This document shows, one piece after another, positions 7,287 through 26,200 of a DNA stretch of 64,000 nucleotides. Each line of letters starts with the position of its first letter. The first letter of the stretch is position 1. The DNA comes from Clostridium sp. CAG:762. GTDB taxonomy: Bacteria; Bacillota_I; Bacilli_A; RF39; UBA660. The DNA lies in assembly GCA_000432575.1 (NCBI GenBank), contig HF996829.1, positions 35,272 through 99,271 on the forward strand, given 5' to 3'. Both the position numbers and the translations under genes were made by a program. The notes beneath the pieces were generated by a model that was given only the letters and a program-made list of their open reading frames with translations, searched no databases and was not told where the DNA came from.

Positions 7287-7315
7287 TTTGCCACCAAATA
7301 TAAATTTTATATTCT

Positions 7316-7639
7316 TTATTCTTTTATATCATATTCTAATGATAATTTATTAAAAGTTTCTAAATCACATTTGCTTTTTAGTTCATTCATATATAAAGAT
7401 TTATAAAAAGACCATCTTTGAATAAAATCAGCAATTGACATTTGATCTATTGAAATATATTGAGCATTTGGTTTTAATTCTTCAATAGATTCATAAATGA
7501 TAGACTCTTTTTGAAATTTCGATTTTGCCTTTAATGTTATTTCTTTTAACTTTTCACGATTTGGGTATGATGAATTTAATTGTTTGTCAATATCTTGTAT
7601 ATCCTTTATTAATTCTAATATATCTTTTTCTAGTTTCAT
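7316..7639 (-). CDS. Hypothetical protein (107 aa)
   Basis: ORF only. Confidence 0.4.
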   Translation of the reverse strand: MKLEKDILELIKDIQDIDKQLNSSYPNREKLKEITLKAKSKFQKESIIYESIEELKPNAQYISIDQMSIADFIQRWSFYKSLYMNELKSKCDLETFNKLSLEYDIKE

Positions 7640-7651
7640 AATTAATCACCT

Positions 7652-8194
7652 CTACTTCATTTCAATTTCCTTTTCATCAACATATTGGTAATTTAACAAA
7701 TTATCACTAGTAATCACACTTTTACCCAGCTCATTCTCTAAATCTTTTCTTGCATTACCAGCAATTTTGCCACCTCGTCTTGCTACATCAATGTTTTCAT
7801 TTAATCCTTTTGGATTTTTCTTTTTGCTATTTCTCTAGTTGCAATTTCACCTAAATCAGCTAATGTCACTTCTACATCGGTCATATTATCTCTTAATGAT
7901 TCTTTCCTAAGTCCTTTAAATGATTTATACTCTTTTGCAGTCATACCAGACCATTCTTTATAAATTTCATTTGTTAGAATTGCATACTCTTTTGATTCAG
8001 TTATTCCTCCATCTTTCCATACATCTGTAAGTTGTTTTCTATCTTGAATACCTTTAATTCTTTTTGCAATCCATTTTTCATCATAACCTTTAGTTCTATA
8101 TAAGTCTATTGCTCTTTGTGCTGCTAATGAAGGATCAAAAATTTCATCTATTCTCTCACTTCCTAGTTTAGCAAGCCATTGTTTTATAGGCTCT
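7652..8194 (-). pseudogene. C-terminal part of a split and frameshifted Bro-N/DinD-like (DNA-damage-inducible protein D family) gene
   Basis: Frame 1 gives ..EPIKQWLAKLGSERIDEIFDP..EYAILTNEIYKEWSGMTAKEYKSFKGLRKESLRDNMTDVEVTLADLGEIATREIAKRKIQKD*. A -1/+1 shifted frame continues with GLNENIDVARRGGKIAGNARKDLENELGKSVITSDN..*, the conserved DinD tail. The shift lies in the run GCAAAAAGAAAAATCC at about 7805-7830. Confidence 0.65.
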
Positions 8195-8197
8195 CTG

Positions 8198-9865
8198 TTA
8201 AGACCCAAATGACACGTTTTGGGTCTTAACATCTTGAGGCGTTAGAGCAATTTTAAATTCAGAACCTGTTTTTAATATAAATCTAATTACATTTGGATCT
8301 TTCTCTCCATTTTTTAATACTTCTCCAACTACAATTTTCTCTACAAAATTTTCAAAAGTGTTTTCATCAAATTCCGTTAAAGTGCAAGGAATATTTATAA
8401 TCTTTTCTATTTCTTTTATTTTAGTAGAAATATTTTTATTATCCTCATTTAATTTTTGTAGTTCCTTTAATTCCTCATCTAAATTAGATAATTTTGTTTT
8501 TATTTCTTCTTCTTTTAAATCATAAACTTCTTTTGTAATACTATTATCTAATCTCATATCAACTAATTTTAATAACTTATCTTGTAATACTTTTTTATTG
8601 TTTTCTATTTCGTTAATACTCTTTTGATAATCATTATCATTAATAACACCTTTTATTGTGTTTAAAAGAAGTTCTTTTGTTTTATGCTTATTCTTAACAA
8701 TATTATTATAAAGTTCTATAAACATTTTTTCTAATATATCTTCTCTGATATATCTTGAATCTTTACAATCTTTCTTATCATAGACTCTTTGATAACACAT
8801 CCAATAATAAGGAATAGTACCATCTTTTTTCTTGCTTCCATGTCTTCTAACATAAGTTGTTCCACAAAATCCACAAGTTATTTTACTACTAAAAGGATAC
8901 CTTTTACTATAATTTGTTGGGTGTTTACTTCCTTCAGGTATTACTTTACTACTTCGTTTTTCGTATATCTCCTGTGCCTTATTCCAAACTTCTCTTGTTA
9001 TTATAGGAATATGATGGTCTTTTACATAGTATTTTTCTTTCTCTCCAAAATTTTGAACTGCTCTATGCGAAATAGGATTTTCAATATACCATTTTTGACT
9101 AATTAAATCTCCAACATATTTCTCATTGATAATCATATTCCTTATTCTACTACTTGTCCATCTTTTACCAGTATAAGTTAATATTCCTTTTTCATTTAAT
9201 AATCTTGCTATTGTTTGTGTACCTTTACCATTAATATACCAATCAAATACTTGTCTAACAATTTTGGCTTGTTCTTCGTTTATTTCAAGTTCTTTTGTTT
9301 CTTTATTCCAAACATATCCATATATTCTAGCAATACCATTCATTTCGCCACGTTTCATTTTGGCTCTCATACCCATTTGAACATTTTGAGATGTTGATTC
9401 ACTTTCTGCTTGTGCAAATGCACTATAAAGTGTTAAAAACATTTCGCTATCTAATTCTAGAGTATGAATATTTTCTTTTTCAAAATATACATCTACATTA
9501 TGTTCACGAAGTAATCTAACATATTTTAAAGTATCAAGTGTATTTCTAGCAAATCTTGATATAGACTTTGCTATGATAATATCTATCTTACCATTTAAAG
9601 CATCATCTATCATTCGCATAAATTCTGTTCTTTTCTTAACTTGTGTTCCACTAATACCCTCATCAGCATATACACCAGCAAATTCCCAATCTGGATTAGA
9701 TTTAATATAATTCGTATAATGATTAATTTGTGAAGAATAACTTGTTAATTGTTCTTCGGAATCAGTGCTTACTCTTGCATAAGCACAAACTTTTTTAATT
9801 ATTCTTTTAACGGAATTTTTAATATTATTTTTGAGATTAGCTGCAATAATCTCAACTTGTGCCAT
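8198..9865 (-). CDS. Large serine recombinase (resolvase/invertase N-terminal domain + recombinase domain + zinc ribbon + coiled-coil)
   Basis: AYARVSTDSEEQ catalytic Ser motif, IIIAKSISRFARN, zinc ribbon CGFCGTTYVRR..YYWMC; 555 aa. Confidence 0.9.
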   Translation of the reverse strand: MAQVEIIAANLKNNIKNSVKRIIKKVCAYARVSTDSEEQLTSYSSQINHYTNYIKSNPDWEFAGVYADEGISGTQVKKRTEFMRMIDDALNGKIDIIIAKSISRFARNTLDTLKYVRLLREHNVDVYFEKENIHTLELDSEMFLTLYSAFAQAESESTSQNVQMGMRAKMKRGEMNGIARIYGYVWNKETKELEINEEQAKIVRQVFDWYINGKGTQTIARLLNEKGILTYTGKRWTSSRIRNMIINEKYVGDLISQKWYIENPISHRAVQNFGEKEKYYVKDHHIPIITREVWNKAQEIYEKRSSKVIPEGSKHPTNYSKRYPFSSKITCGFCGTTYVRRHGSKKKDGTIPYYWMCYQRVYDKKDCKDSRYIREDILEKMFIELYNNIVKNKHKTKELLLNTIKGVINDNDYQKSINEIENNKKVLQDKLLKLVDMRLDNSITKEVYDLKEEEIKTKLSNLDEELKELQKLNEDNKNISTKIKEIEKIINIPCTLTEFDENTFENFVEKIVVGEVLKNGEKDPNVIRFILKTGSEFKIALTPQDVKTQNVSFGS

Positions 9866-10199
9866 TTAATACCTCACTTTCACTTTTATTTTTTTTGAAC
9901 TTGCAGTCGTGTTCTCATTAATTATTATACTAAATTTTTGACTAATTCTATAGTCATTAATAAAAACTTTTAATTTTTTCTTTCAACACATAAAATTGTT
10001 TTTCATTAATTAATTCTAATTTTAATAATTTTGATATTATAGATAAATTAATTGTTTCATCAATAATATTATCTATTTCTATTTGTGTTAATATCTTTTC
10101 TTTGTTATCATCTTCTTTCATAGTTAAAATTACCCCCTTTCTTTTTATTATTTTTTAAACTTCATTTTCATAACTAATCTCAAATCCTTTCCGTTAATT

Positions 10200-10619
10200 T
10201 CATCTATAAGGTTTTAACAATTCTTCCATTTCTAATCTTTCTTCTTCAATAGGTGGTATTGTTTCTTCTCGTTTTCCATTCCAAACTTCTACACCATCAG
10301 GATCCACTCTAATATGTGGACCATTTCTACCATTTATTAATTCATCTTCATTATTTGCTATATCTAAAACAGTTATAAATAATTTAATATTGTTATTAGA
10401 ACTATAAGAATTAAGATAACCCTTAATAAATACTTTAGTCCCTTTAACAAAAAAATCTTTATATATTTCATAAAGATTTCGGTTAATATTTAAACTAGAA
10501 TATACTTTTCTTTTATCATATTTAAGAGTGGTTAATCCAAACTTAATATAATCTTGATTATTATCCATTATATTATTAATTGTTCCAGATATAATTATTT
10601 CATTTAAATCTACATTCAT
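10200..10619 (-). CDS. OB-fold protein, possibly SSB-like (139 aa)
   Basis: Weak call: N-terminal b-rich region ISGTINN..FVKGTKVFIKGYL and an acidic C-terminal tail EEERLEMEELL. Confidence 0.3.
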   Translation of the reverse strand: MNVDLNEIIISGTINNIMDNNQDYIKFGLTTLKYDKRKVYSSLNINRNLYEIYKDFFVKGTKVFIKGYLNSYSSNNNIKLFITVLDIANNEDELINGRNGPHIRVDPDGVEVWNGKREETIPPIEEERLEMEELLKPYR

Positions 10620-10759
10620 ATATCATTTCCTTTCGTTTAATTAATTTAAATTATTTAAATAATTTTAAACTTATATTATTTATTATAATTATTTATTAAT
10701 ATTATTTATTCTGTTAGAAGTTATTCGCTATACATATAGGCAGTATCTTGCTATTTAAT

Positions 10760-11032
10760 CTAGAAGATATTTGCTAAATATATTTTTCTAGCACTATCGT
10801 CATTATCAATTTTAAGATAATTATTTCTTCTCAAAGTTGTTATTGAACTAGATATAGTTCTTTTAGATACTTTTAATAAATTACTTAAATATCTATTACT
10901 TGCATAACAATATCCATCTTTCATTGATAAAGTTGTTATTAAGCCCATTAATAGTTTAGTAGTAGAAGATAAAACTTCATCTAGTAAAACTACCATCGGT
11001 ACTTGTATATATTTTAAATTAGTTAAATCCAT
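10760..11032 (-). CDS. HTH protein of the phage replisome-organizer/RepA_N-like type (90 aa from an internal Met; the track ORF extends to 11191)
   Basis: Motif GYCYASNRYLSNLLKVSKRTISSSITTLRRNNYL, paralogous to 18183..18710. A GGAGA RBS lies 8 nt upstream of the ATG at 11030-11032. Confidence 0.5.
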   Translation of the reverse strand: MDLTNLKYIQVPMVVLLDEVLSSTTKLLMGLITTLSMKDGYCYASNRYLSNLLKVSKRTISSSITTLRRNNYLKIDNDDSARKIYLANIF

Positions 11033-11332
11033 AATATCATTCTCCTTTTCTTTAATTTTTTGCAACAAAAAAACTTGTAAACACATATTACAAGCCATAA
11101 CAATTAATAAACGACTTAAAATAAATACACAATGTGAAATAAACACATCTTTAATGGTTGCTTGAAGTAAAACATATAATACATATTTCAATCCCTTTTA
11201 TTCTTTTTGTTTAGTTCTTTGAAATATGTTTTACTTCAAACTAGTTCATCTCATATTTCTATAAGATAGGTTCTAACATAAGCCTCCAATCTTACTGAAC
11301 CTTATTTGCTAACGACTATCTATGTGTCTTCT

Positions 11333-11596
11333 TTAGCAAATGTGATACTCATACATTCCTGTATGATATTCTTTGAATCTTAGATAATTATTATTTTGTA
11401 ATTGTTCTAAGATTTTTCTTAGTCCTTTGTTTTTTATTCGAACTGTCTGTTGAATATCTCCTACATTTAGATGTGAGATAGTTCTTTCAAATCCCTCTGC
11501 ATATAGATATGCAAATATTTCTTTTGCTTTAGGTTTGATATTCTTATCTTCCCATATCTTGTGGTTTGATATATCTAGATGTTTTAAGTTTCTCAT
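11333..11596 (-). CDS. Small winged-helix/HTH DNA-binding protein (87 aa)
   Basis: ..EIFAYLYAEGFERTISHLNVGDIQQTVRIKNKGLRKILEQL.., divergent from the XRE gene. Confidence 0.4.
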   Translation of the reverse strand: MRNLKHLDISNHKIWEDKNIKPKAKEIFAYLYAEGFERTISHLNVGDIQQTVRIKNKGLRKILEQLQNNNYLRFKEYHTGMYEYHIC

Positions 11597-11747
11597 TCAT
11601 ATCTTGTCCTCCTTTCTTTTTGGAAATTAAGTTTCCATAATCCGACAATACATCATAAATATTATATTGTCAACCCTGTTTCCGTTTTTTTCTTGCATAT
11701 TTCTATTTTTTGTTATATAATTAAGTTGTCAGAGGAGATGATTAGGA

Positions 11748-12257
11748 ATGTTAAATAAAAAAAAATCTGATGAGACACTTGCAGAATTAGTAAGAAATGC
11801 ACGAAAAGAAAAAGGATTATCTGCAAGGAAACTAGCTAACCTACTTAATTTAAGTCATACTGAAATAAATAATATAGAGAGTGGTTATAGAGTTAAGCCA
11901 TCAATTATTGTATTAAAAGGATTAGAACAATATTTAGGTATTCCTTTTACTAAATCTGCAAAACTTGTAGGATATTCAAAAGAAACAATAAAATATGGTG
12001 AAGATGAAATTATTGTTAGCTATGAAATGTATGATAAGAAAATAAAAGAATTTAAAGAAGAAATTAGAAATGCCGAAAATACCATTGAATTAAAAAGACA
12101 TATAGCAATGGATACAGAAGAATATTTTAAAGATATACATAATTATTTAAAAGAACAGAAAGATATTGATAAAAAATTATTAGATAAGGCAAATTCTATT
12201 GAAAGATTTTTATCAGAAATACAAAGAAAATACGAGAGTATTTTCAAAGAAAAATAA
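11748..12257 (+). CDS. XRE-family (Cro/CI-type) HTH transcriptional regulator
   Basis: LSARKLANLLNLSHTEINNIESGYRVKPSIIVLKGLEQYLGI. Confidence 0.75.
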   Translation: MLNKKKSDETLAELVRNARKEKGLSARKLANLLNLSHTEINNIESGYRVKPSIIVLKGLEQYLGIPFTKSAKLVGYSKETIKYGEDEIIVSYEMYDKKIKEFKEEIRNAENTIELKRHIAMDTEEYFKDIHNYLKEQKDIDKKLLDKANSIERFLSEIQRKYESIFKEK

Positions 12258-12377
12258 CCTTTTACCATTATTGGTATTAGGTTATTTTTTGTATAAAAAA
12301 GGATATTACGTTTTGTTGCGTTAGCAATGAAAGTAGTAGACTTTTTTCTTTTTTATGAAGTCATAAGACAAAATAAA

Positions 12378-12430
12378 AAAGGCACCAATACTTTTTACGA
12401 TAGTTTACAGTATTGGTGCTTATTGGGTTT
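12378..12430 (+). terminator. Rho-independent terminator (stem GCACCAATACT/AGTATTGGTGC, then a T-rich tail)
   Basis: 11-bp perfect stem downstream of 11748..12257, followed by TTATTGGGTTTTT. Confidence 0.5.
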
Positions 12431-12504
12431 TTAAAGGATCTCCTTTGGCACACTATTCCTAGTTGGCATTATGCCGACTTGGTAGTGTGTTACTATAATG
12501 GAAT

Positions 12505-12545
12505 TATAGTTTTTAAAAACAGATTAACTTTATCAATTAATCTGT
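12505..12545 (-). terminator. Rho-independent terminator for the 12563..13711 gene
   Basis: Stem CAGATTAA/TTAATCTG, followed on the minus strand by TTTTTAAAAA. Confidence 0.5.
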
Positions 12546-12562
12546 TTAATTTAAATAAATAA

Positions 12563-13711
12563 CTATTTTTTCCTAATTGTTAATACAGCAGGATTTACAG
12601 TTCCTTTTTCTTCTGAATCTTCAATACCATATTGTTTATTCCAATATTTTCTATATTCTTCACCTTGTTTTGCAAAATGTGATAGAGCATTTGCAGTAGC
12701 TCCAGCCATAAATCCACTTAATCCTAACTCTTCATTGTATACTTGTTGTTCAGCTTCTTCAAATGAAATACCTTCTTCAAATTTCTTCATCATTGAAATA
12801 GTTGCTTTAACAACAAATACTGAATAACCATCATTACTATTATTATCAGCAAATTGTAACCATTCTTCTGCTGTTTCAGGTTTAACTAAAGTTAATCCCT
12901 CTTTCATTAATGTGTATTTAGCTTTTTTAGCTGCTAAATCTGCACGTTCTATTGCTTTATTTCTTTCTTCTTCGGCTTTTAATCTTCTATCTCTTTGCTT
13001 ATCAACAATAACATCACCAAAGAATTTTCTTTTTGAATCTTCAATATCTTCTGGGCTTCTTCTATCATAGCCATATTCTATATATGGATTAGAATATAGT
13101 TCTTCGCCAGTTTCTTCTAATGTTATAGATGAAATTGCAGAACCATAGCCTATAAATGGTATTCCAGAATGTTCTGTTTCAATATTTGAAAAATAATTTA
13201 CATTTCTTAATGTATCAGTTTCATTTTGCTCAACTCCGTACCACCAAGCTTTATATGAAATTCTTTCCCCAATATGTTTTTTTAGGTTTTCAAACATTCT
13301 AATAGCATTTTTTTCTTTGCTATGTTTTGCAATATATTCAGCAAAAGTCATATCTCCTTCTTCCATTGGTAAGAAAGAACCTGCTTGAGTATGGCATACA
13401 TAATTATAACCATTACATTTCATGTTGCTAATTAGAATTCTATAATCTGGATTATTTCCATATTTTGCTTTAATTTCATCTAAACTATATCTTTTTCCAA
13501 AATAAATCCATCTAGAATAATTTGATTTTTCACCATCATAAGTTTTTTCACCATCTACAACATATTCTTTGTCGTAAAAACGGAATCCTTGCATTTTACC
13601 ATCATTTTCAATTTGCATAGGATTTCTTTCAGTCACTTCTTTTATTGAAGATTCACTAAATAATAGACCTCTGTAAATTTTCTCAACATAAGTTTTAGTT
13701 ATTTTTTCCAT
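12563..13711 (-). CDS. Hypothetical cargo protein (382 aa from MEKITKTY; the track ORF extends to 13780)
   Basis: Strong RBS GAAGGGGGAAATATT upstream of the ATG at 13709-13711. No recognised domains; a charged coiled-coil-like segment KQRDRRLKAEEERNKAIERADLAAKKAK. Confidence 0.55.
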   Translation of the reverse strand: MEKITKTYVEKIYRGLLFSESSIKEVTERNPMQIENDGKMQGFRFYDKEYVVDGEKTYDGEKSNYSRWIYFGKRYSLDEIKAKYGNNPDYRILISNMKCNGYNYVCHTQAGSFLPMEEGDMTFAEYIAKHSKEKNAIRMFENLKKHIGERISYKAWWYGVEQNETDTLRNVNYFSNIETEHSGIPFIGYGSAISSITLEETGEELYSNPYIEYGYDRRSPEDIEDSKRKFFGDVIVDKQRDRRLKAEEERNKAIERADLAAKKAKYTLMKEGLTLVKPETAEEWLQFADNNSNDGYSVFVVKATISMMKKFEEGISFEEAEQQVYNEELGLSGFMAGATANALSHFAKQGEEYRKYWNKQYGIEDSEEKGTVNPAVLTIRKK

Positions 13712-13806
13712 AATATTTCCCCCTTCAGAAAATCGTTTAATATAATAGCATAAATTAACTAGAATGTCAAGCAAATCCAACTGATTTGTATTAAAAGCAG
13801 GGAAAA

Positions 13807-14199
13807 CTATAATAAATTTAATGAATAATAATAATCATATACATTTAATTTTTGGTTAATTATAATATTTATTTCTTCATCATTAAAATCATATTGAAAG
13901 ATTTTAAATAATAATTCTACTAAAAAATTTTGCTTTTCTAATAATGATAATTCCATATATTTAGCTGATATAAATAATAAGTTTTTATATTTAGCAAAGT
14001 TAGTTATTACTTTTTTATAATTTGAATCTAATATTCCTAATACTTCTTTTAATAATCTAATGAAACTTTCGTCATATTTAGTAGAAAAACAATTTTCTTC
14101 AAGTATATGTATTGCTAATCTAACCTTATTAATCCCATTTAAATCATCAATAATATCAACTAAATTCATTACCCTTTCTGTATTATTTTCTAATAGCAT
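13807..14199 (-). CDS. Hypothetical protein (130 aa)
   Basis: ORF only. Confidence 0.35.
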   Translation of the reverse strand: MLLENNTERVMNLVDIIDDLNGINKVRLAIHILEENCFSTKYDESFIRLLKEVLGILDSNYKKVITNFAKYKNLLFISAKYMELSLLEKQNFLVELLFKIFQYDFNDEEINIIINQKLNVYDYYYSLNLL

Positions 14200-14373
14200 A
14201 AATCTTCCACCTTCCTAATTTGCCATTTAAGGCACTTTATTTCAAAGAACAGATAAGAGATTAAGCTTTACCTTAAAACCTCAATATGAGTGATTAAATT
14301 AGGTTTAATCTCGTTTTCTTGTCTTTTTATTTATCACTCAAACAATTAAAAAAATCAAGAGTGTTTTTTAATT

Positions 14374-15669
14374 TTATCTACTTAAATCAAAATCATCTTT
14401 ATCATATTCACCTTCATCATAATCTCTAACTCTTTCTTTGTAATAATCAGGTGCTTCAACATATTCAAATAATTCATCTTGATTAGTTGTTCCTTTAGAT
14501 ATTCTTACAACATCTCTCATATCAAACTCACTATTGTCATAACAATCTTTAACAACTTCAGCAGTTTCATCTTTAGTATAGTCATTACCTCGTTGTAATA
14601 GTTTCCTTAAAAACTTCTTTAATAATTGGAATAGTTCATTTAATCTATACATTAAACTTCTATTTTCTTGTTCTAGATTTTGATTTTCATATTCTAATTT
14701 ACTAATTTCTTTATTATACTTTTGATTTTCTTTTTCAAGTGATTTATAACTATTAGCATAACTATCAACTTCATTAAATATTGTTTGTAGTTTAGGTTGT
14801 AATTCCATTACTTTTTTAGATTCACTAATAACATTATTCATACTATCAAAAGTATCTTTTTTAACTTTAACAAAATCTTTATCAATAATAAGTGTTTGTT
14901 TAGTAGTTTTCATTTTTTCTTCAAAATCAGCCATTGCTTTATCAATTCTATCATTTCTTACATTTAATTCTTGATTAAGTTTTTTAGTAAGTTTTTTATA
15001 TTCCTTTATTTTAATATGCTGATTATCACTACCTTTAATACCTCGTTCTAAATCATAACCTTTTTCAGTTAGTCTTTTATGATACATATCTTGTAATTGA
15101 GATAATTGTAATTTATCTTTGATATATTGTTTTTTAGATATAGTATATCTTTCAGATTTAGTCCTATTATCTAATTTCTTAACAAGTGGAACAACAACAC
15201 AATGAATATGTGGTATTTCTTCATCTAAATGGACAGTTGCATAAAGTATTTGTTCTTTCTTATAGCCTAAATCATTATAAACAAATTCCATACAAGTATC
15301 TGCCCAATCTTTTATTTGTTCTCTAGACATATCTTTAAAGAAATTATGTGACGCAGTCATAACTAATTCATCAGCAACACAATTTCTTGAACTATTTAAC
15401 ATTTCGTGATATCTTTTCTTTCTATCAGCTCGTTCAGTTTTCATTCGTTCATTGTGTTCCTTTTTATATTCTTTTGTTAATTCATCAAAACCTTTAACAT
15501 ACTTAACATTTAATGGAACAAGTTCTATATTATTCTTACTTAATTCTATTTTTATATCTTTATTTGATTGATATACTTTCTTTTCACGTTTATTATGTGA
15601 TCCTATTTGTGCTAAATCAGGTATAGTCATAATAGGTTCACTTCTAAATATTGCATAATTTAAATTCAT
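14374..15669 (-). CDS. MobV-family (Mob/Pre, pMV158 MobM-like) relaxase
   Basis: Hallmark HxDE..PHxH motif (ATVHLDEEIPHIHCVVVPL), an N-terminal catalytic region, and a long C-terminal coiled coil. Confidence 0.8.
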   Translation of the reverse strand: MNLNYAIFRSEPIMTIPDLAQIGSHNKREKKVYQSNKDIKIELSKNNIELVPLNVKYVKGFDELTKEYKKEHNERMKTERADRKKRYHEMLNSSRNCVADELVMTASHNFFKDMSREQIKDWADTCMEFVYNDLGYKKEQILYATVHLDEEIPHIHCVVVPLVKKLDNRTKSERYTISKKQYIKDKLQLSQLQDMYHKRLTEKGYDLERGIKGSDNQHIKIKEYKKLTKKLNQELNVRNDRIDKAMADFEEKMKTTKQTLIIDKDFVKVKKDTFDSMNNVISESKKVMELQPKLQTIFNEVDSYANSYKSLEKENQKYNKEISKLEYENQNLEQENRSLMYRLNELFQLLKKFLRKLLQRGNDYTKDETAEVVKDCYDNSEFDMRDVVRISKGTTNQDELFEYVEAPDYYKERVRDYDEGEYDKDDFDLSR

Positions 15670-15971
15670 ATATTGTTTCTCCTTTCTTTTTTACACAACA
15701 AAAAAAGATATGTAATTAAACATACCTTACATTGCAACTAATCAAAATTAATATTTTTACTTTTACAATCATACTTATTTATTGAATTATATGATTACAA
15801 GAACACGACACTTTAATTATCTTAAAACTGATACTATAACACTCCAATTGCTTTGATTATCTTTTTTATCAGTAATATCTAGTTTTACATAATCTTTATA
15901 AAAATCAACAATTCCTTTAAAATAAAGTATATCTTGTATATTTTTATTCAATGTCATTTTATACAAAACAC

Positions 15972-16283
15972 TTCTGCATTCTTGCTAGGAACTGATTCAA
16001 TAATTCTAAACATTCCTTCAATATCAACAACGTCAGTCATACGATATTTTCCATCTTGTGCTTTTAATTTTAAAGCGTGACAATTTGTCACGGTTTCATT
16101 TCCTTCTTCTTTTAAACGTTGCTTAAGTTTTCTCCAATAGGCTTGCTTATCCTTACTTTCCGAAATAACTCCAACAAAATCAACAACACTTATAAAATAT
16201 TTTTCTTGTTCCTTATCCCAAACAGTTCTAATTGTTTCATTATTAAACATTTTATTTACTAAATGCATTTTATCTTGATTCAT
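15972..16283 (-). pseudogene. N-terminal part (Bro-N domain) of the split Bro-N/DinD-like gene
   Basis: MNQDKMHLVNKMFNNETIRTVWDKEQEKYFISVVDFVGVIS..TNCHALKLKAQDGKYRMTDVVDIEGMFRIIESVPSKNAEVF, then 3 element-derived codons and a stop (track ORF 15954..16283). Confidence 0.65.
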
Positions 16284-16397
16284 AAGATACCTCCTTTGCT
16301 GTATATATTATATCAAATATTTGTTCTTTTTTCAACATTTGTATAAGTAGTTTATCAATTATTTTATGTACACATTGTCGCAAGTTACGACAAAGTT

Positions 16398-18008
16398 CTA
16401 ATTATTCAGTATACTAAATTTATAGATAATTTCTATGTTTCTATCTTTATCTATAATAATTTTATCTATTAAAGCCCCAATTAATTCTCTTGATGGATTA
16501 TCTATATCAATTAATTTTTTTATTTTATCTTCGTAGTCTTTTATTTCTGACTTATTAACTTTCTTTTCTTCTTTTGAATCTTGTAGACTTTGAATTTTTT
16601 CTCTTATTCTAACTAGAGAATTTTCTGTTTCTCTAGAAATTCTTAAATACATTTCTTCAGATACTATGCCATAAAATTTATCTTGATATAACATATCTAA
16701 CTTACTAATTAATGATTTTTCTTGCTTTCGCAAATCATTTATATTGTTGTTAACTTCACTATTATCTTTTTTATTAATACTTTTAGATATTTCTGATATA
16801 TCTAATTTATTTAAATACTTCTTACAAGTATTTCTAATAACTTCTAGCAATGCTTCTTCTAATTTATCATACGGACTAAAATGAGGTTCACACATTCTTC
16901 TTTTAGGATCTCTTGAATATCTATTACAATTAATAGTCCAATAATCATGATTTTTTCTATAAGAAATTGTTAAAGTATTGCCACATTCCTTACAATATAA
17001 TAAATTTTCAAATAGTCTTTTTTCTCTCTTAGTAATAATAGTTTTAGTAGTTCTTTTAATATTATTTTGAACACTTTCAAATATAAATCTATCTACTAGT
17101 GGTTCATGGGTATTTTTAACTATATCCCAATTACTTTTCGGTAATGATTTTTTCTTTTTGGATTTATATGATACTTTAGTTTGTACACTTTGTACCATAT
17201 CACCAACATACATTTGATTTTTTAAAATCTTTTTAACAGAAGAAATAGTCCACATAGGATTATATTTAGCTTTTGAATTAGGATTCTTTTTCTTCAAACT
17301 ACTAGGTGTTTTAATATTATTATCATTCAAATAAGTGGTTATTTCAGAAAGTCCTACACCGTTATAAGCCATTTCAAATATCTTTTTTACTACCCATGCA
17401 TACTCTGGATCTGGTATTAAGTGCCCTTTATCATTTGGATCTCTTAAATATCCATAACTTGGAGCACTTCCAATAAATTTACCATTTCTCCTTTTGTCAT
17501 TTAAAACATTACGAATTTTAATAGAATTTTGTTTACTATAATAATCATTACAAGCAAATAACCATGTTGCTGAATCATTACTTGCTTGATTAATCGCATT
17601 ATCGTATCCTTCCAACATAGAAATAAATCTTATTCCATTTTCTGGAAAGAAGGTTTCAACATAATATCCTGTTAAAATATGATCTCTACCTAATCTTGAT
17701 AAGTCTTTTACTATTACAAGATTAATTCTTTTGGCTTTAATATCTTCAATTAATCTCTGAAATCCTGGTCTATCAAAAGTAGTACCAGAATATCCATCAT
17801 CTACATATTCATCTACAAAAATAAATCCTTTTTCTTTGATAAAATTCATTAGTATATTTCTTTGATTAAGGACACTCTCACTTTCAGATTCGTAAGATTT
17901 GCCTTCATCAGCTTCTGATAATCTTATATAAATTCCTGCTTTGTAGTAATCTGGCATCACATTTAAAGTGTTATACAAGCTTACTCTCCTTTCCTTGTTG
18001 TATAACAA
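16398..18008 (-). CDS. Large serine recombinase (second copy, outer element)
   Basis: GIYIRLSEADEG catalytic Ser motif, VIVKDLSRLGRD, zinc ribbon CKECGNTLTISYRKNHDYWTINCNRY..RRMC; 536 aa. Confidence 0.9.
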   Translation of the reverse strand: MLYNKERRVSLYNTLNVMPDYYKAGIYIRLSEADEGKSYESESESVLNQRNILMNFIKEKGFIFVDEYVDDGYSGTTFDRPGFQRLIEDIKAKRINLVIVKDLSRLGRDHILTGYYVETFFPENGIRFISMLEGYDNAINQASNDSATWLFACNDYYSKQNSIKIRNVLNDKRRNGKFIGSAPSYGYLRDPNDKGHLIPDPEYAWVVKKIFEMAYNGVGLSEITTYLNDNNIKTPSSLKKKNPNSKAKYNPMWTISSVKKILKNQMYVGDMVQSVQTKVSYKSKKKKSLPKSNWDIVKNTHEPLVDRFIFESVQNNIKRTTKTIITKREKRLFENLLYCKECGNTLTISYRKNHDYWTINCNRYSRDPKRRMCEPHFSPYDKLEEALLEVIRNTCKKYLNKLDISEISKSINKKDNSEVNNNINDLRKQEKSLISKLDMLYQDKFYGIVSEEMYLRISRETENSLVRIREKIQSLQDSKEEKKVNKSEIKDYEDKIKKLIDIDNPSRELIGALIDKIIIDKDRNIEIIYKFSILNN

Positions 18009-18182
18009 CTAAAGCCAATTAAATTATACCATACAAATTTAATTTGGCACATTGTATCAATCACTATTTACCTTACTTTTAATAAATTTAATTACCAGTT
18101 CATAGAAATTAGGAGAATCATCTTTGAAAGTTTCTATTATATTAAACATAAGCCACCTCATTTAAGTATATGAGTGTCTTTA

Positions 18183-18710
18183 TCAATTTATATCTTCCTC
18201 CATTTCTTTAAAACTCTCTAGCTTTTTCTCCATCTCTTTTTGTTCTTCCTTAGTTGCTTCTTTTGATTCAATAGGTTCACCATGCCAGTATTCAACACCA
18301 AATTCATCCACATAATAAATTTTATCTAATATATCTTTTTTATTTTTATTATATTTATTATAATGGTTAAAATTATTTTGAATACTAGTATTAATATTTC
18401 CTTGAATACTTGTTATTCTTTTCTTTAATACCTCGGATAATTTTATTATCCTCTTTGAATTATTTGTTTCACTATTATTAATTTCTATATCAATATATCC
18501 ATTTTTTGATAAACTACTTATACTCTTTGATACAGTTGGTTTGGTACAATCAAACTTCTTCATAAAATATCTATTAGTAGGCCAACAATAGCCATTTTTC
18601 TTACATAGTGACACAATGTCTATTAATAATATTCTCTCAAAGTAAGTTAATCTATTATCTCCTAATACTGATTCTGGTAATACTAAACTTATAAATGGTT
18701 CTTTTTCCAT
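18183..18710 (-). CDS. HTH protein of the replisome-organizer/RepA_N-like type (175 aa), paralog of 10760..11032
   Basis: GYCWPTNRYFMKKFDCTKPTVSKSISSLSKNGYI; sits immediately upstream of the recombinase. Confidence 0.5.
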   Translation of the reverse strand: MEKEPFISLVLPESVLGDNRLTYFERILLIDIVSLCKKNGYCWPTNRYFMKKFDCTKPTVSKSISSLSKNGYIDIEINNSETNNSKRIIKLSEVLKKRITSIQGNINTSIQNNFNHYNKYNKNKKDILDKIYYVDEFGVEYWHGEPIESKEATKEEQKEMEKKLESFKEMEEDIN

Positions 18711-19105
18711 TATTTCTCCAATATAAGATTATCAAGTTTAGTAGTTCCATATTATCCTCCTTTCTTTACCAGTCTTTTTAGGAACACATAAAAAGAACTG
18801 AACACATTAGTCCACAACAAAAATAAGGGAATATTTCCAATCTTTTTTGTTGGATTAATATGTATTCAGTTCTTCACTGATTAATTATTATACATTATTC
18901 TTTAATGTATAATAAAGCTTTCTAATTTCTTTTTAATATTTACTATTTTATATTTATATATGTTTATATGTAATAGTCACATTCCCGTATGACTAGTTTA
19001 ATTATAACACTAATTATTGTATTTTCAATATGTAATCGTTAGACAATATCCGACAAATTATTTTATTTGTTAAAAATCATTAACACTAATTTGAGTGTTG
19101 TCAAC

Positions 19106-19390
19106 TCAAATACCATCATTATTTTCTTGCTGACTTTTTACAAAACTATTATATTCATCTACCTTAGTATTATAATCATTTAAAATATCTTTTATTAATG
19201 ACACAAGCCCTTCTTCTTCTGGAGTTTTATCATCAAATTCTTTGTTAATTGTGTATTTACTCTTTAAATTTTCATTTAACAAAAATTTTACCAATTCTTT
19301 AAAATCTATATCTTTCGAAAAATTATATGTTTCAATAAGATTTTTATCATGATATAGTTTTATATTATCTTGTTCTTTAATTATTTCCAT
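19106..19390 (-). CDS. Hypothetical small protein (94 aa)
   Basis: ORF only; overlaps the downstream gene start. Confidence 0.35.
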   Translation of the reverse strand: MEIIKEQDNIKLYHDKNLIETYNFSKDIDFKELVKFLLNENLKSKYTINKEFDDKTPEEEGLVSLIKDILNDYNTKVDEYNSFVKSQQENNDGI

Positions 19391-21842
19391 ATTCCTCTTC
19401 TCCTAACACATTTCCATATTTTTTATTTCTATTAGAAAATGATTTTCTACCACCATCTAAAATATTCATTATTTCTTCTTTATCATCCTGCGATTCTATT
19501 AAATAATTTTTATAATCTATTTCACCATCATTAGTCACAAATATATAATTAAATGCATCACCATATACCGCAACTGTAGGATTATGAGTTACAAAAATTA
19601 ATTGCTTAATTTTTTTCTTTTCTTTTATTATTGAAACTAGCTTTTGACTAATATAATCATTATCAATATTATCTTCAGGTTGGTCAAATAGTAATATTAA
19701 TTCGTTAAGTTCAAATAACATATCTAAATATGCTACCGACTTCATTCCTGGAGATTCCTTTGATAAATCAGTAATAGTTCTCTTATCAATTTGTTCAAAC
19801 AAATCCTTTTTTACCTTTATATCATCAATATTTATTTTTGAATTAATTTTAAAAAACTCTTTTTTAGGTTGAAATATTTCATTTTGTATGAATTTTGACA
19901 ATTCTGCGGATAAACTGTTGATATTAGCTTTTAGATTTCTTTCTCCATTAATATACTTCATTATTAAACTAAAATCACTTGAATCACTTTTTACTTTCGA
20001 AATTGTACTTGCTATTTTTTCATAAATTGTATCAATAAGATTATCTGGTACTTCATATGAAGTTGTAAATAAATATGGCATTTTAACATATTTCTTTATA
20101 ACAGGGCTTTCTTGTTTAAAATTATCAAGTAAATAATTTAACTTTTTAGAATCTAATATTATTTTAAAATTTCTTTTTATTATATTAATAATACTATTTA
20201 AATTTTTTCGTTGTTCTTGTATTATTTTTTTAGATTCATCTCTTTCACTTATAATTTTGTTTGTTCTCTCATTACTATTTTTTACAACTTCACTATATTT
20301 ATCAAGTAAAAATTTGTATTCACTATATTTTTCAATTATTGTACTATTAATATTTTTTAATTCATCAATATTTAATCCATAATTTTCAAATTCTTTTACT
20401 AATTCATTTAGAGATTTTGAAAGACTATTTATTTTAATAGATACTGAGTCACTGCTTATTTCTGCATAAGTATCATATGTATAATAGTCAGTTTTATCTT
20501 TTAAAATCTTTAAAATTGATGTTATATTTTTATAATTGATATCAATTGGTTTTACATTTTTAGCAATATCTATTATTTGATTAATATATGATAAATCATA
20601 ATCATCTATTTTAGGAAAATATGAAGATATTTGCTTATTAGCAATATCAGGATTTTTATATATTTCAGAAATCTTATCTTGTTCTAATACAGCAAGTGAA
20701 GATAATTGACCAGGATTAATTTTAATTCCATTATAATCAATTCCCAAAACGTTTTTAATATTAAAATTTTTATAATCTGTTGTTATTTTATTATTAGATT
20801 TATTTAAATTCTCAATTATTGCTAATAGTAATGACTTGCCACTTCCTCTTTTTCCAATTATTACATTTAAACCAGGCGAAAAATTAATATCCTTGTTTTT
20901 ACCATTAAGTTCAAAAGAAATACTACTAATAATATTAGGAGGAATTGGTATTTGTTCTTCAGCAGATTTAATAATTCTCGATTGTGGATCTAATACAGCT
21001 AATTCAAATGTTTCAAAAAAGTATTCCAATGAGCCAAAAATATAATTATATATTTGTGGATTATATGGTTCAGCATTATGCCAATCACTAAATTTAAAAT
21101 AACTAAAATAATTACCATAATTTATTATATAATCATATATTTTTTTACAATCCTTATCTGCTATTTCATACTTTTTATCATTTATCTTTTTCCTTATTTC
21201 AGATATAATGAATTTCTTTTCTTTTTCACTTTTATCTTTTAAATTTTTTTCAAACGCTTGAGTTTGTTCATAAAACCCTAACGCCCAATTATCACATGAC
21301 CTTTCATTAAAAGAGGCTGTAACATCAAAAGCACTAAATATTTTGTACATTGCATATTTATTTATATCATTAGACTCTTCTATTGATATTTTATCTAATA
21401 TACTTAAAATACCTCTTGCTTTATTTCCTTCAGGTACAAGGATTATTTTACATTTTAATTGTACAATACAATTTATTATTTCGTGAAATTTTGGTTTATT
21501 ATCATTCTTATAAAGATCATTCAATATTTTTTCCAATCTATTTCCATCTAGATTGTTATCGAAATAAACTCCCATTTGAAAAAAATCTTTATCATTTACA
21601 TAAACATCTAATTCAGTTCCATTTATTATTTCAATTGGTTTGTCTATAATATATTTCCGAATATCATCATAATATGATGATGAATAGACATCATGATCAG
21701 TAATGCTAAAAATGTTTATCCCCTTATCTAAAAGAGCATCCACATAATCCTTAGCACTCATTTGCTTTACTCTAGTTTTATCCTTACTTTTTGAATAATA
21801 TGAATGCATATGCATATCACATTTTAACCATTGTTGTTTCAT
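19377..21842 (-). CDS. PHP-domain phosphoesterase fused to an ABC/AAA-type ATPase (single-gene Ppl-like antiphage architecture)
   Basis: N-terminus MHMHSYYS..FSITDHD (PHP His/Asp motifs). Walker A GLNVIIGKRGSGKSLLL, Walker B LILLFDQPEDNID, and H-loop FVTHNP; 821 aa. Confidence 0.55.
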   Translation of the reverse strand: MKQQWLKCDMHMHSYYSKSKDKTRVKQMSAKDYVDALLDKGINIFSITDHDVYSSSYYDDIRKYIIDKPIEIINGTELDVYVNDKDFFQMGVYFDNNLDGNRLEKILNDLYKNDNKPKFHEIINCIVQLKCKIILVPEGNKARGILSILDKISIEESNDINKYAMYKIFSAFDVTASFNERSCDNWALGFYEQTQAFEKNLKDKSEKEKKFIISEIRKKINDKKYEIADKDCKKIYDYIINYGNYFSYFKFSDWHNAEPYNPQIYNYIFGSLEYFFETFELAVLDPQSRIIKSAEEQIPIPPNIISSISFELNGKNKDINFSPGLNVIIGKRGSGKSLLLAIIENLNKSNNKITTDYKNFNIKNVLGIDYNGIKINPGQLSSLAVLEQDKISEIYKNPDIANKQISSYFPKIDDYDLSYINQIIDIAKNVKPIDINYKNITSILKILKDKTDYYTYDTYAEISSDSVSIKINSLSKSLNELVKEFENYGLNIDELKNINSTIIEKYSEYKFLLDKYSEVVKNSNERTNKIISERDESKKIIQEQRKNLNSIINIIKRNFKIILDSKKLNYLLDNFKQESPVIKKYVKMPYLFTTSYEVPDNLIDTIYEKIASTISKVKSDSSDFSLIMKYINGERNLKANINSLSAELSKFIQNEIFQPKKEFFKINSKINIDDIKVKKDLFEQIDKRTITDLSKESPGMKSVAYLDMLFELNELILLFDQPEDNIDNDYISQKLVSIIKEKKKIKQLIFVTHNPTVAVYGDAFNYIFVTNDGEIDYKNYLIESQDDKEEIMNILDGGRKSFSNRNKKYGNVLGEEEYGNN

Positions 21843-21917
21843 TTATACTACCTCCACTACATAAAAAGCGCAATACAAAAACTTAAACAAGTGTAAGCCT
21901 GTACTAGCGCTTTAAAA

Positions 21918-23081
21918 TTATTTATTTCCCTTTGCTCTATTATGTGTCTGACATAACATTTGACAATTATCTATATCTGTAGATCCGCCTTTACTCCATG
22001 CAGTAACATGATCTGCATCCATTTCTTTTAATTCCCAAATTCTATTTTTATTATTATCATTTCCTATTGCACATAATGGACAATTACTTATATCTTTTAA
22101 TTTTGCATCTTGAGTTTGTTTTTCATATACAACTCGCTTTGTATTATCATCAAATACTCTAATATTCAAAAGTTTAGTATCTTTACATCCACCTAATATA
22201 TACTCACATATACCTTTAGTATCTTTAACTTGTGGATCAGCATATAATTTACATAATATTTCAGAAACCTTATTAGGATCATATGAATTGTTATGATATG
22301 TTTCATATAATCTTCCCCATTCAAGACCTCTCATATCTGATTTTACATCTTTAAATACAGTTGATACCCAAGTTATTACAGAATTGAAATATGTTCTTAA
22401 TTCTGTAATATTAGTATCAAATCTATGTTGACTCATGTAACTATCAATATTACCTTTACTTACCCAATTAAGAGCTGTTGCAAGATATTCTTGCCTATTT
22501 ACATCACCTTTTATATATGCGCTCCATTTTTGAATATTTGCATTTTGAGAATTAGAAAATTCTTCACGAGCCATAGTTACAAAAGGTCCAGAATAAATAG
22601 CATTTAATAATTCTTGATTATTTAGTGGAACACCTACAATATTAATTGTTTTAAACCATTCTTTAATTTCTGATTCTTCACCCTCACAAATATAAATTGT
22701 TAACTGTGAATCAAGAATCTTATCTTGTAAATTTTTAGCCAGTCCATCAAAATATTGCTCCATACAATGTTCATCTTTAATAGCAAATTTATCTGTAATA
22801 AATCTTCCAAAACTAGTAACTCTTTGTTGCCCATCTAAAATTTCATATTTATCTTCTCCAACTTTAACAAAATATAATAAACCTAGTGGATAACCTTTTA
22901 ATAATGAATTAATTACAGCAACATCCCTTTTTCCATCAGCATAAATATAGTTTCTTTGATATTCAGGTTGAATTGTTAATTTTCCACCCCATCCAAATAA
23001 GCCTTTTCCTTCATATTCATTATAAACAAATCCTTCATTTATATCTCTAACAGTTAAATCAGTTTTCAATATTGTTTTCAT
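21918..23081 (-). CDS. DUF262 (ParB-like) + C-terminal HNH nuclease: GmrSD-like type IV restriction endonuclease
   Basis: [14 protein letters not shown] (DGQQR motif) at the N-terminus and [31 protein letters not shown] (HNH) at the C-terminus. Confidence 0.7.
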
Positions 23082-24180
23082 TATTTACCTCCTTAAATTC
23101 TATTAATATTCTAGCATATACTCTTTTACCATTTATTAATGGACATGCAAGTCTTTCTCCTTTAAATGGAATGCCGACAATAAAAGCATCATATCCAGCT
23201 GATGCCAGAAGTCCAACAATCCTAAATTGTTCTGGATTATATTTATCCAAAAAAGTAATTGGAACTCCCATAACACCTTTGTAATCTGCCGGAATTGAAT
23301 CTGTAAAAGAAATATCAATAGCATCATAATTATCGTATTTTGGATATCCATGTTCCCTTATTTGTTTATGTTTACTATATTTTAAATTATCTTCCATTGT
23401 CATTAATTGTAATGGTTGATGTCTCCTTCCATGTTCTATATTGGTAAGCCATAAACAATTATTAGTAGAAACTATTCTAAGTCCTTCTTCATTTATGCGT
23501 GCTTCTGTACCATACAATTCATATGATTTTGGGACAATAAATCCCGAAATCCATCTACCCATTCCATTGCCTAACCATGCTCTATTCGTTCTTATCAAAG
23601 TAAATACTTCTTTATATGATATACAATTAATATTGCCAATTAATAAAAATTGTTTGTTTGCTTCTACTACCCACGATAAAAATTCCCTAAATAAACTAAA
23701 TGGTGGATTAGTGATTATTATATTAGCTTCATTGCGAAGTTTTTTTACTTCTTCAGATCTAAAATCACCATCACCTTCTAGATAATCCCACTTTAAATCT
23801 TCAATATCTATTCTTCCTGAATTGTTTTCATCTCTATCTAAAATAAATACCTTCCCATGTGTTTTAGTTTTATTTTTATCAAATTTTGGAGATTTTTCTT
23901 CAAAAAGCGATAGCTGAACCATTACATTTTCTTTTTTATCATTTGCATAACTAGTACTTATAAGTTTTTTTAATCCAAACCTTTCAAAGTTTTGTGCAAA
24001 AAATTTTGTAAAATTACTCCATTCTGGATCATCACACGGAAGTAAAACTATTTTGTCTCTAAACAAATTAGGATTATATTCTAAATATGCATTAACCTCC
24101 TTTTGTATATCTGAATATAATGTATAAAACTCATCATTTTTTGATTCTTTTGCTTTCTTTAGCATTTCTCTTTTTGGCAT
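23059..24180 (-). CDS. N6-adenine-specific DNA methyltransferase
   Basis: Motif [11 protein letters not shown]; an N-terminal [17 protein letters not shown] region; 373 aa. The start overlaps GmrSD-like gene by 23 nt. Confidence 0.7.
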
Positions 24181-24184
24181 ATAA

Positions 24185-24841
24185 TCACTTCCTACTAACT
24201 AAAATTTTTTCTAACTTATGTTCTAATTGATATAAAGTATTTTCACTAGATACATCTCCACCTAGGTCTTCAAGTGCTGAATATAATATTTGACGTTTTG
24301 ATGGATTTGAATTATTTGGTACCTCAATATCCGTATTTTTCTCATATATACCTAAAGTTCCATCTTCATTTGTTTTAGAATAATAATCTTTTCCAGTTAA
24401 ACTTGAATGAAAACTAATATTTTTAAAATGATGTCTATTTTTTGACAACATTAAAGCATCTTTCTTATCTTCTATTTCCTTTGCTGTTTCTTTCCATAGA
24501 TGAAGTCTATCAGTTGTTCCATTTATTTCAGTCATACTTTCAAATGCAGAATACATTTCTTCTGGACTCATATGGTAGAATTCTCTTACTCTAATTTTAT
24601 CTCCTATTTTTTCTTTACTTCTTAATTCTGGATTTATAGTATCTATGAATTTGTGTAATTTTATATCAGTTAATCTCTCAGTTACATCAAAAGTTGCATA
24701 AATATGAAAAGAAAAAGGAACCGCTTCAGAATTATTTAATTGTTTTACTCTTAGTTCAACATCATCTGCATATCCAATTTTGATATATTCTGGAAATGAT
24801 GGATTAGTTAATATATAAATTACACCACATTTTTCTTTCAT
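24185..24841 (-). CDS. GIY-YIG (T5orf172-type) domain protein, possible nuclease partner of the methyltransferase
   Basis: GVIYILTNPSFPEYIKIGYA...R..QLN at the N-terminus; C-terminal half unknown. Confidence 0.5.
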   Translation of the reverse strand: MKEKCGVIYILTNPSFPEYIKIGYADDVELRVKQLNNSEAVPFSFHIYATFDVTERLTDIKLHKFIDTINPELRSKEKIGDKIRVREFYHMSPEEMYSAFESMTEINGTTDRLHLWKETAKEIEDKKDALMLSKNRHHFKNISFHSSLTGKDYYSKTNEDGTLGIYEKNTDIEVPNNSNPSKRQILYSALEDLGGDVSSENTLYQLEHKLEKILVSRK

Positions 24842-24856
24842 ACACTCTCACTCCTA

Positions 24857-24886
24857 AAGTTTTAACTCAATAATATTATATCATAC
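24857..24886 (-). promoter_or_regulatory. Candidate extended -10 promoter (TGaTATAAT) for the GIY-YIG/MTase/GmrSD operon
   Basis: The minus strand reads ..AATTGTCGAATTGTATGATATAATATTATTGAG.. about 35 nt upstream of the ATG. Confidence 0.3.
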
Positions 24887-25081
24887 AATTCGACAATTTT
24901 TTAATTTTGACATTGAAATAATTACAAATTTTAATTTTCAAAATAGGTTTTGGGAGTATTCCCACAATAGAATTTCGTACAGGAGTACAAATTCATTGCT
25001 TGCTAGACAATAAATTTACTCCCAAACCAATTAATTCACATTTAAAAACTCTATCAGTTTCATCTGACAGAGTTCTACTTT

Positions 25082-25381
25082 TTAATAATATTTCTTCAAT
25101 ATCATTGGATTATCTTTTACTATTACTAAATTATATTTTATTTTTAATATTTCTTTTATCTTAGGTATAAGTCTACTAATATCACATCTACAATTAAATA
25201 TATCTACAGCAGAGTTAATATGATTTATTAAATTATATTCTGATAAGCAATATCTACTATATGAATTTGCTAAATAAAATACTACTAAATCAGGTATAAC
25301 ATATTTATTTAAATAATCATTAACATTGTTATAGAAAGGCAAATATATTTCTTCAAATTCTTTATCAGTTATATCACACAT
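25082..25381 (-). CDS. Hypothetical protein (99 aa)
   Basis: ORF only; 8-nt overlap with the tnpV-like gene. Confidence 0.35.
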   Translation of the reverse strand: MCDITDKEFEEIYLPFYNNVNDYLNKYVIPDLVVFYLANSYSRYCLSEYNLINHINSAVDIFNCRCDISRLIPKIKEILKIKYNLVIVKDNPMILKKYY

Positions 25382-25724
25382 AGATATACTCCTTTAAAAC
25401 TATTTCTTCTACCATATTTTTTATATTATTCATTTTACCTATCCATAACATTTTATTACTACTTTTTAATTCTTCAGTAATATTTTCTTTTTCAGCTAGG
25501 TCTTTAATTAACTTCTTCACCATCTCCATAACAATAGTATCAACATTATGAAGATATTCATTTAATGTATCACTAACAAGTAAATCAAAATATAATCCTA
25601 ATTTGTAATTCTTAATATAATTTAATCTTAATAACCCATATTTTCCTATATTATATTGTTTTTTATTTTCTAATATTAAATCTGGCAATAAATAATCACC
25701 ACTCTTAGTGTAACTAATATTCAT
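25374..25724 (-). CDS. tnpV: TnpV-family transposon protein (Tn4451 TnpV-like)
   Basis: SYTKSGDYLLPDL..GKYGLLRLNYIKN..YFDLLVSDTLNEYL..ITEELKSSNKMLWIGKMNNIKNMVEEIVLKEYIY matches the conserved TnpV pattern (GDYxxPDL, GxYG, GTLxxHL, VTExLKAxDxxxWxxxMNxI..AEEIV). Confidence 0.6.
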   Translation of the reverse strand: MNISYTKSGDYLLPDLILENKKQYNIGKYGLLRLNYIKNYKLGLYFDLLVSDTLNEYLHNVDTIVMEMVKKLIKDLAEKENITEELKSSNKMLWIGKMNNIKNMVEEIVLKEYIYV

Positions 25725-25919
25725 AACAGTTCTCCATTTCTTTCTATATTTATTTGGCTTTAATTGTTATACATTCGTTACACAATGACTATACTTCTAA
25801 TTTCAAATTTGGTAATAAATAATCACCAATTCTAGTGTAACTAATGCTCATAATTTTCCTCATTTCTTTCTATTTTATTTGGCTTTAATTGTTATACATT
25901 CGTTACACAATGACTATCG
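25684..25919. repeat. Imperfect tandem duplication (2 x about 110 bp, period about 127 bp, about 90% identical) of the right terminus, including the terminal inverted repeat and the 5' end of tnpV
   Basis: Copy 1 spans 25684-25794 and copy 2 spans 25811-25919. Both contain GGCTTTAATTGTTATACATTCGTTACACAATGACTAT, and copy 2 encodes a 21-codon remnant MSISYTRIGDYLLPNLKLEV*. Confidence 0.7.
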
Positions 25920-26200
25920 CCACCCCCTGCATTCAAGTGATTAGACACCACAACCACATTAGGATTGTTACCAAACGCATCCAACACCAAATTAGTTCTT
26001 TCATTTGGAGCCAATGTCTTATCACTATCACGCGTCAATGCAACAGGTATCCCCAGTTCCTTAAACCTATCATACATATACTTAGATATCATCAAATTAT
26101 AATCTTTTTCCTTCAAATTATTTCCCAAAGCACCCGAATCACTACCTCCATGACCAGGATCAATTACAATACCTACTAAAGATTTATCCATGTTTATCAC
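25920..26200 (-). pseudogene. N-terminal segment of the split N-acetylmuramoyl-L-alanine amidase (Amidase_3)
   Basis: MINMDKSLVGIVIDPGHGGSDSGALGNNLKEKDYNLMISKYM..GIPVALTRDSDKTLAPNERTNL..VVVVSNHLNAGGG, then an element-derived DSHCVTNV* (track ORF 25892..26200). Compare B. subtilis CwlC IFIDPGHGGSDPGA...FLSIHVNSGGGTG. Confidence 0.8.

Follow-up and report, generated by a model that had tools for sequence, protein, structure and literature searches.

Two copies of a mobile-element terminus lie head to tail at the right end of a ~19.5-kb island in Clostridium sp. CAG:762. Comparison with related loci indicates that the outer copy is probably a 125-nt relic of a diverged sibling, here termed B-type, which used the same attachment site, in an amidase/LysM gene, as the element now resident there, termed A. 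The initial annotation called this arrangement a tandem duplication. That label is misleading: the copies are two adjacent alleles, neither of which arose by copying of its neighbour. All positions below refer to the window, the whole 64,000-nt stretch of DNA that was analysed.

The island and its target gene

The island as a whole, E1 (6411–25922, minus strand), comprises element A, the relic, and a further element, E2, nested inside. It interrupts an Amidase_3/LysM gene read on the minus strand. The N-terminal part of this gene (25892–26191) runs in frame into the outer terminus and stops there, and the C-terminal part (5463–6410) encodes the rest of Amidase_3 and four LysM repeats. Both junctions of E1 were located, ...AGTACCACC|TGGTGATAGTCAAAATGTAAC on the left and GTTACACAATGACTATCG|CCACCCCCTG on the right, and they have in common a 5-nt core, CCACC (6406–6410 and 25920–25924). 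Deletion of the insert with one core kept restores the amidase ORF as an in-frame 404-aa protein, with a single Amidase_3 match (positions 1–173 of the 174 in the profile) followed by the four LysM repeats. The ends of E1 are imperfect inverted GATAGTCAnnnTGTAAC. Its attL (6406–6431, plus strand) consists of the CCACC core and the left terminal inverted repeat GATAGTCAAAATGTAAC (6415–6431), the sole left-type end in the window.

Genes of E1 encode TnpV, a PDC-S57/T5orf172 protein, a type II restriction-modification pair, a Ppl-like PHP-ATPase, an HTH_36 protein and the large serine recombinase LSR536 (16398–18008, minus strand; Resolvase, Recombinase and Zn_ribbon_recom domains). Among solved structures, TnpX (2mhc, E=2.8e-24) is the best match to the LSR536 catalytic domain. 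A second large serine recombinase in the insert, with only 25% identity to the first, has its source in E2 (8192–15974, minus strand, ~7.8 kb), which is not part of the repeat. E2 is inserted in a Bro-N gene of E1; when it was excised in silico at its flanking GA dinucleotide, a 233-aa ORF was restored. It contains the only Mob_Pre relaxase gene of the insert (14374–15669), a 405-aa Tad4-like protein (Tad4 being an anti-Thoeris domain), HTH_3 and HTH_36 proteins, and the 555-aa recombinase, LSR555.

E1 resembles Tn4451/Tn4453 and Tn6104–6106 in having a TnpX-related large serine recombinase and a TnpV homologue, and Tn4451-type elements in the very short identical core at both junctions and the precise restoration of the target on removal. 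The core dinucleotide of TnpX is GA (the literature cited here gives a 2-bp core only). E2, with its Mob_Pre relaxase and GA core, is the more Tn4451-like part of the insert, whereas the core of E1 would by symmetry be GG, within GGTGG. Unlike Tn4451/Tn6104-type elements, E1 has no Mob/Pre (TnpZ-like) relaxase of its own; its cargo is defence genes, not catP as in Tn4451; and its TnpV is only ~36–42% identical to annotated TnpV proteins on plasmids. Tn6104, Tn6105 and Tn6106 of C. difficile combine TnpV, serine recombinases and mobilisation genes, and such elements can be nested (PMC3158075).

Integration of Tn4451 has low specificity (PMC5704250). E1, by contrast, is strongly site-specific: among 32 distinct right-hand flanks collected from public contigs, 25 are the same amidase codons, across 20 species-level genomes, and 7 are other targets. 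The codons are those for a conserved ...NHxNAGGG(T)GAE... motif in an Amidase_3/LysM gene next to yabP/yabQ (loci L011–L055). The amidase site is in use in ~20 species-level genomes of uncultured gut Bacilli, where excision of the island would make the gene whole again. E1 in the amidase gene resembles the gene-intervening elements known from sporulation genes (PMC5595907, PMC4191935).

The interior of the element varies among strains. In comparison with window positions 18194–25792, the tnpV-orf99 module of four loci (L001, L005, L006 and L009) is identical (847 nt, 100%) and their HTH_36/recombinase module is similar. Defence cargo differs among strains of the same species, with type I restriction-modification and AAA_15/DUF4435 in some, T5orf172, type II restriction-modification and a KAP NTPase in others, and the Ppl-like PHP-ATPase in the window. 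From these comparisons the interior of E1-type elements looks like a cargo-swapping hotspot. At one locus (L062, 2280–3120), an A-type element with identical cargo occupies another target, ...CGGACTCCCGA|GGTGGCGATAGTC, which lies just downstream of a further serine-recombinase gene (544 aa) and of an ORF of 239 aa. This is a secondary-site insertion, either within another mobile element or adjacent to it.

Origin of the outer copy

Tandem Repeats Finder made a single call at the right end, a two-copy array at 25668–25917 on the minus strand (period 127, 2.0 copies, 88% matches, score 395). A repeat search resolved it into a 44-nt block at 100% identity (25749–25792 and 25874–25917, spacing 125) and a 59-nt block at 85% identity (25668–25726 and 25795–25853, spacing 127), so that the period is 125–127. 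Global alignment of the inner and outer copies gave 110 identical columns in 125 (88%), with 15 differences and two 1-nt gaps. The repeat noted initially is therefore real and its period of ~127 bp stands; the copy length of about 110 bp and identity of about 90% given with it were slightly off (the units are 123–125 nt and 88% identical), and the array starts at 25668, 16 nt further out than the 25684 given there. In the 64-kb window the 21-nt end motif has exactly two occurrences, where 100 shuffles gave an expectation of 0.00.

Read on the minus strand, the outer unit is GGTGGCG-ATAGTCATTGTGTAACG...ATGAGCATT...AAATTAGAAGT. The inner unit follows directly as ATAGTCATTGTGTAACG...ATGAATATT... 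and leads into the complete 116-aa TnpV gene of element A (25374–25724, minus strand). The earlier assignment of this gene to tnpV was borne out by a match to PF14198 that covers the full profile (E=3.4e-37), and the exact protein sequence is indexed in 180 blocks of a public collection. Both copy ends quoted in the initial annotation, GTTACACAATGACTATA and GTTACACAATGACTATCG|CCACC, were recovered on the minus strand, as was the remnant of a tnpV start that it had placed in the outer copy, MSISYTRIGDYLLPNLKLEV (minus strand, 25851 to 25789; 20 codons plus TAG). In this small ORF, Val20 is native to tnpV_B and the TAG stop was made by the junction. The relic proper (25793–25917, minus strand, 125 nt) is made up of the conserved terminus, with a recombinase arm of ~47 nt, a B-type 5′ UTR that includes a ribosome-binding site, and codons 1–20 of tnpV_B. 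The inner terminus of element A (25749–25792, minus strand) equals the outer copy over its 44 nt and is without GGTGGCG.

The outer copy has an exact counterpart at another locus, L048, from a human gut sample and a different host; its amidase flank is ~81% identical to that of the window, and its tnpV/orf99 and recombinase regions are 76–82% identical. L048 matches the outer copy perfectly over GGTGGCG plus 123 nt, as far as GAAGT, and then diverges, continuing TAAAGAAAG..., which codes for ...KLEVKERFNIGKYG. Over the 85 variable nucleotides of the outer copy, identity is 100% to L048, 94% to the next best locus and 83% to A-type loci. The inner copy, for its part, is 100% identical in 17 other loci. 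Because its variable part is that of L048 and not that of A-type loci, we interpret the outer copy as the end of a diverged B-type sibling whose tnpV was cut after codon 20. One option in the initial annotation, a scar of a related TnpV element that was later deleted, was essentially right.

The contrast between 44 nt at 100% and the rest at 85% is no sign of recent copying, because the block from GGTGG to AAAGCCAAA is nearly invariant across the family (41 distinct sequences), well beyond the 21-nt probe. A-type and B-type ends have a 53-nt identical block in common. A tblastn search with TnpV and a fuzzy search for element ends found neither a second left-type end nor the rest of tnpV_B in the window. 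On these grounds we rejected a nested insertion in which B persists.

In each copy (25700–25792 and 25827–25917), the terminus motif TGTGTAAC is paired with an inverted counterpart, GTTACAC, that lies ~60 nt downstream, in tnpV codons 4–6. Nearly all of 34 distinct family sequences retain this counterpart, also those with a different downstream gene; the 5′ arm was fixed by the search probe. RNA folding of the terminus/tnpV region gave a z-score of -2.5. The inverted pair could be a translation-control hairpin or an accessory protein site. No terminators were found in the region and no known RNA families in the repeat region; the only Rfam match in the window at the gathering threshold is an ordinary feature, the ribosomal protein L10 leader RF00557 (50039–50159, plus strand, 61 bits).

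The junction between the copies

The joint between B and A reads ...AAATTAGAAGT|ATAGTCATTG (...GAAGT|ATAGTC..., at 25793|25792 within 25788–25797, minus strand). Its partners are GAAGT|TAAAG on the B side and GGTGGCG|ATAGT on the A side, which have neither a dinucleotide nor microhomology in common. The inner copy begins at ATAGTC, and the whole 7-nt GGTGGCG, retained in 65 of 65 other family junctions examined, is absent. Genuine recombinase junctions of this family are precise, since the constant sequence starts GGTGG[C/T/A]G-ATAGTC at all 32 distinct right-hand flanks, including the 7 secondary targets. This constancy, the CCACC core common to both junctions of E1, and the symmetry of the inferred attP (GACTATC-ACCAGGTGGC-GATAGTC) place the crossover within GGTGG, and most probably, by symmetry, at the first GG (25923–25924), 5 nt outside ATAGTC.

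In the window, GGTGGCG (25918–25924, minus strand) comprises the crossover core and the innermost part of the element arm. Together with the outer terminus it forms, by these sequence criteria, the only complete attR of E1. The inner copy would be unable to serve as a crossover site, because the core is missing from it, and is presumably inert. As the partners have no common dinucleotide and GGTGGCG is absent, the inner junction is illegitimate and not site-specific. A conservative site-specific origin was considered and rejected; neither a dinucleotide shared by the partners nor the GA core of E2 fits the sequence.

If the outer copy is a B-type relic, B and A would have been together at the amidase site at some point, either with B resident and then replaced or with B integrated beside A. 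A non-homologous join, linking a break in tnpV_B to one ~5 nt from the A crossover, would then have removed nearly all of B. Three routes could lead there. B may have joined next to A, by recombinase action on a hybrid site or by homologous crossover in the common 53-nt block, followed by deletion from tnpV_B codon 20 to the A terminus. Alternatively, a resident B may have been replaced by an incoming linearised A, one end of which was joined illegitimately in tnpV_B while the other recombined in homologous left-end or chromosomal DNA. In the third route, A would have inserted imprecisely into tnpV_B, with the remainder of B deleted later. Neither a tandem B-A intermediate nor an attP-type junction turned up among the 74 loci or the viral contigs, and no complete B-type element was seen in the host species of the window.

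The right-hand breakpoint lies 5 nt from the crossover dinucleotide, a proximity expected for about 1 in 1,000 random endpoints in a sibling of ~10 kb, a size assumed from A. On this single ground we favour a break made by the recombinase; the proximity suggests that the A side was cut at an attP-type site, then trimmed and end-joined. The breakpoint in tnpV_B shows a weak resemblance to attB, at 10–11 of 23 positions (empirical p ~0.02–0.04 for one arm, 0.09 for the full site, and 0.15 against the commonest attB).

It is possible, if rather unlikely, that the junction is the natural footprint of an aborted serine-recombinase reaction, begun either while B and A stood briefly in tandem or when an A circle came in. 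The recombinase would have paired the attP-type site of A (core GG) with a weak site in tnpV_B, a pseudo-site whose core, GT, is in register with the breakpoint. Mismatch of the overhang would have prevented religation, the protein-linked 5′ end would have lost 5 nt (TGGCG), and host repair would have joined the ends. In eukaryotic cells, serine integrases that act on non-cognate sites often leave small deletions beside the crossover, as phiC31 does at pseudo-sites in mammalian cells (PMC4111918); the junction in the window has likewise lost 5 nt beside the crossover dinucleotide. Unlike the phiC31 events in mammalian cells, the natural secondary-site junctions of the E1 family are all precise. 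If an aborted reaction did occur, it would be a bacterial, in-the-wild counterpart of the imprecise phiC31 events at mammalian pseudo-sites, and a route by which sibling elements competing for a site could displace each other.

The relic also recalls tandem accretion and the CIMEs of the ICESt1/ICESt3 model (PMC5704250), in which a remnant lies beside a functional sibling at one attachment site. In accretion, however, the internal att site is intact and the remnant lies between two usable sites, whereas here the core is absent and the junction is non-homologous. The present relic differs from a CIME further in being only 125 nt, and the recombinase is of the serine type here and of the tyrosine type there.

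Since only the outer copy is expected to act as attR, excision would use this B-derived site, carry the relic along with the element, and still restore the amidase gene. The predicted excised circle would read ...GACTATCACCAGGTGGCGATAGTC... and then enter the relic, and the predicted empty site would read ...AATGCAGGGGGTGGTACTGG....

Distribution of the relic and competing explanations

An exact scan with the 21-mer terminus found 20 loci in as many species-representative genomes, mostly MAGs of uncultured gut Bacilli, and 25 loci in metagenomes, with one copy each; viral contigs gave 0 matches. Exact-protein look-ups yielded 30 loci, and a DNA search of a plasmid collection returned no match. 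In the comparison with related elements that the initial annotation had proposed, a second copy was found in 0 of the 65 other loci that carry the family terminus, and a fuzzy rescan found one only in the window.

Ten loci of the same species with identical TnpV (L001–L010) lie in the same flank as the window (yabP/yabQ/rRNA-methyltransferase/amidase) and have a single terminus, the inner copy joined to GGTGGCG. Ten more contigs with the same cargo (L056–L065) also have one terminus, except L064, which has none, as this locus starts inside the element. The relic segment is absent from both sets. The left junction region was unchanged in nine additional contigs. At L058 (3040–3075), in the same species and site, the right terminus is a variant, GGTGGCGATAGTCAAAGTGTAACAAAATATG, that resembles the left-end repeat, so arm sequences vary within the family.

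One contig came from a human-gut metagenome (L008/L057; ENA ERZ913692, run ERR209832). It shows 0 mismatches to the window in 9,932 nt of flanking chromosome and 0 in 10,419 nt of the element, yet is without the 125 nt. The relic itself was seen in one assembly only. The two-copy arrangement is not conserved. Because L008 is otherwise identical, we take the relic to be a recent, unstable presence/absence polymorphism between near-clonal genomes. It should be easily lost, flanked as it is by 44-nt perfect direct repeats: recombination or slippage between these would take out the 125 nt precisely and restore the canonical A junction, the form seen in the otherwise identical L008.

An occurrence in a single assembly, with an otherwise identical contig that has no relic, is also what would be seen if one sample had held both a strain with A and a B-type element, and reads of the two had been wrongly concatenated, and the 53-nt block common to the two types of end could confuse an assembler. 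We consider such an artefact improbable. The GAAGT|ATAGTC joint lies outside any common sequence, and a k-mer or overlap graph would need spanning reads to create it; the copies moreover carry 15 differences, and hence are no collapsed or expanded perfect repeat.

A functional role is less probable still. In its favour, most of the conserved arm (ATAGTC...AAAGCC) survives in the inner copy, the remnant ORF comes with a ribosome-binding site, and a sigma-70-like promoter match, TTACCA-16 nt-TATAGT (25788–25815, minus strand), arises at the B|A junction upstream of tnpV_A. The array might on this view supply a second recombinase- or TnpV-binding site, a new promoter or a leader peptide that modulates the direction of excision or the expression of tnpV. 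The promoter match, however, is 9/12 in AT-rich DNA, and promoter-like sites in the region, 14 against 10 expected from shuffling, are not above background. The proposal in the initial annotation that a duplicated recombinase site tunes directionality finds no support, given the missing crossover core of the inner copy and the absence of the arrangement from all relatives, including strains with an identical element and the otherwise identical contig. No evidence of a function of the relic was found.

True duplication of the A terminus in place, with later divergence, is very improbable. It would account for the head-to-tail order and for the perfectly identical 44-nt block, but the 15 differences reproduce a natural B-type allele exactly (L048, 100%), and a genome that is otherwise identical over >20 kb without the copy leaves no time for divergence. 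A terminus-derived MITE-like element inserted next to the end, another option in the initial annotation, would likewise be a small unit with one element terminus, but is extremely improbable. The unit carries a single terminal repeat without a left-type end, it is present once in the window and in none of the 74 loci, and its junction has no recombinase core.

With the outer copy as a B-type relic, the annotation of the island changes. Its real right boundary and only usable attR would be the outer copy (core 25923–25924), the 20-codon tnpV start a dead fragment, and the inner terminus no recombination site. As a scar left by the turnover of sibling mobile elements, the relic is ordinary: it neither indicates a new mechanism nor raises a new question. 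It does record competition of two diverged siblings, one of them otherwise seen in a different host, for one amidase site in a single lineage, and the ease with which such a scar would be lost bears on how fast the evidence of element turnover vanishes.
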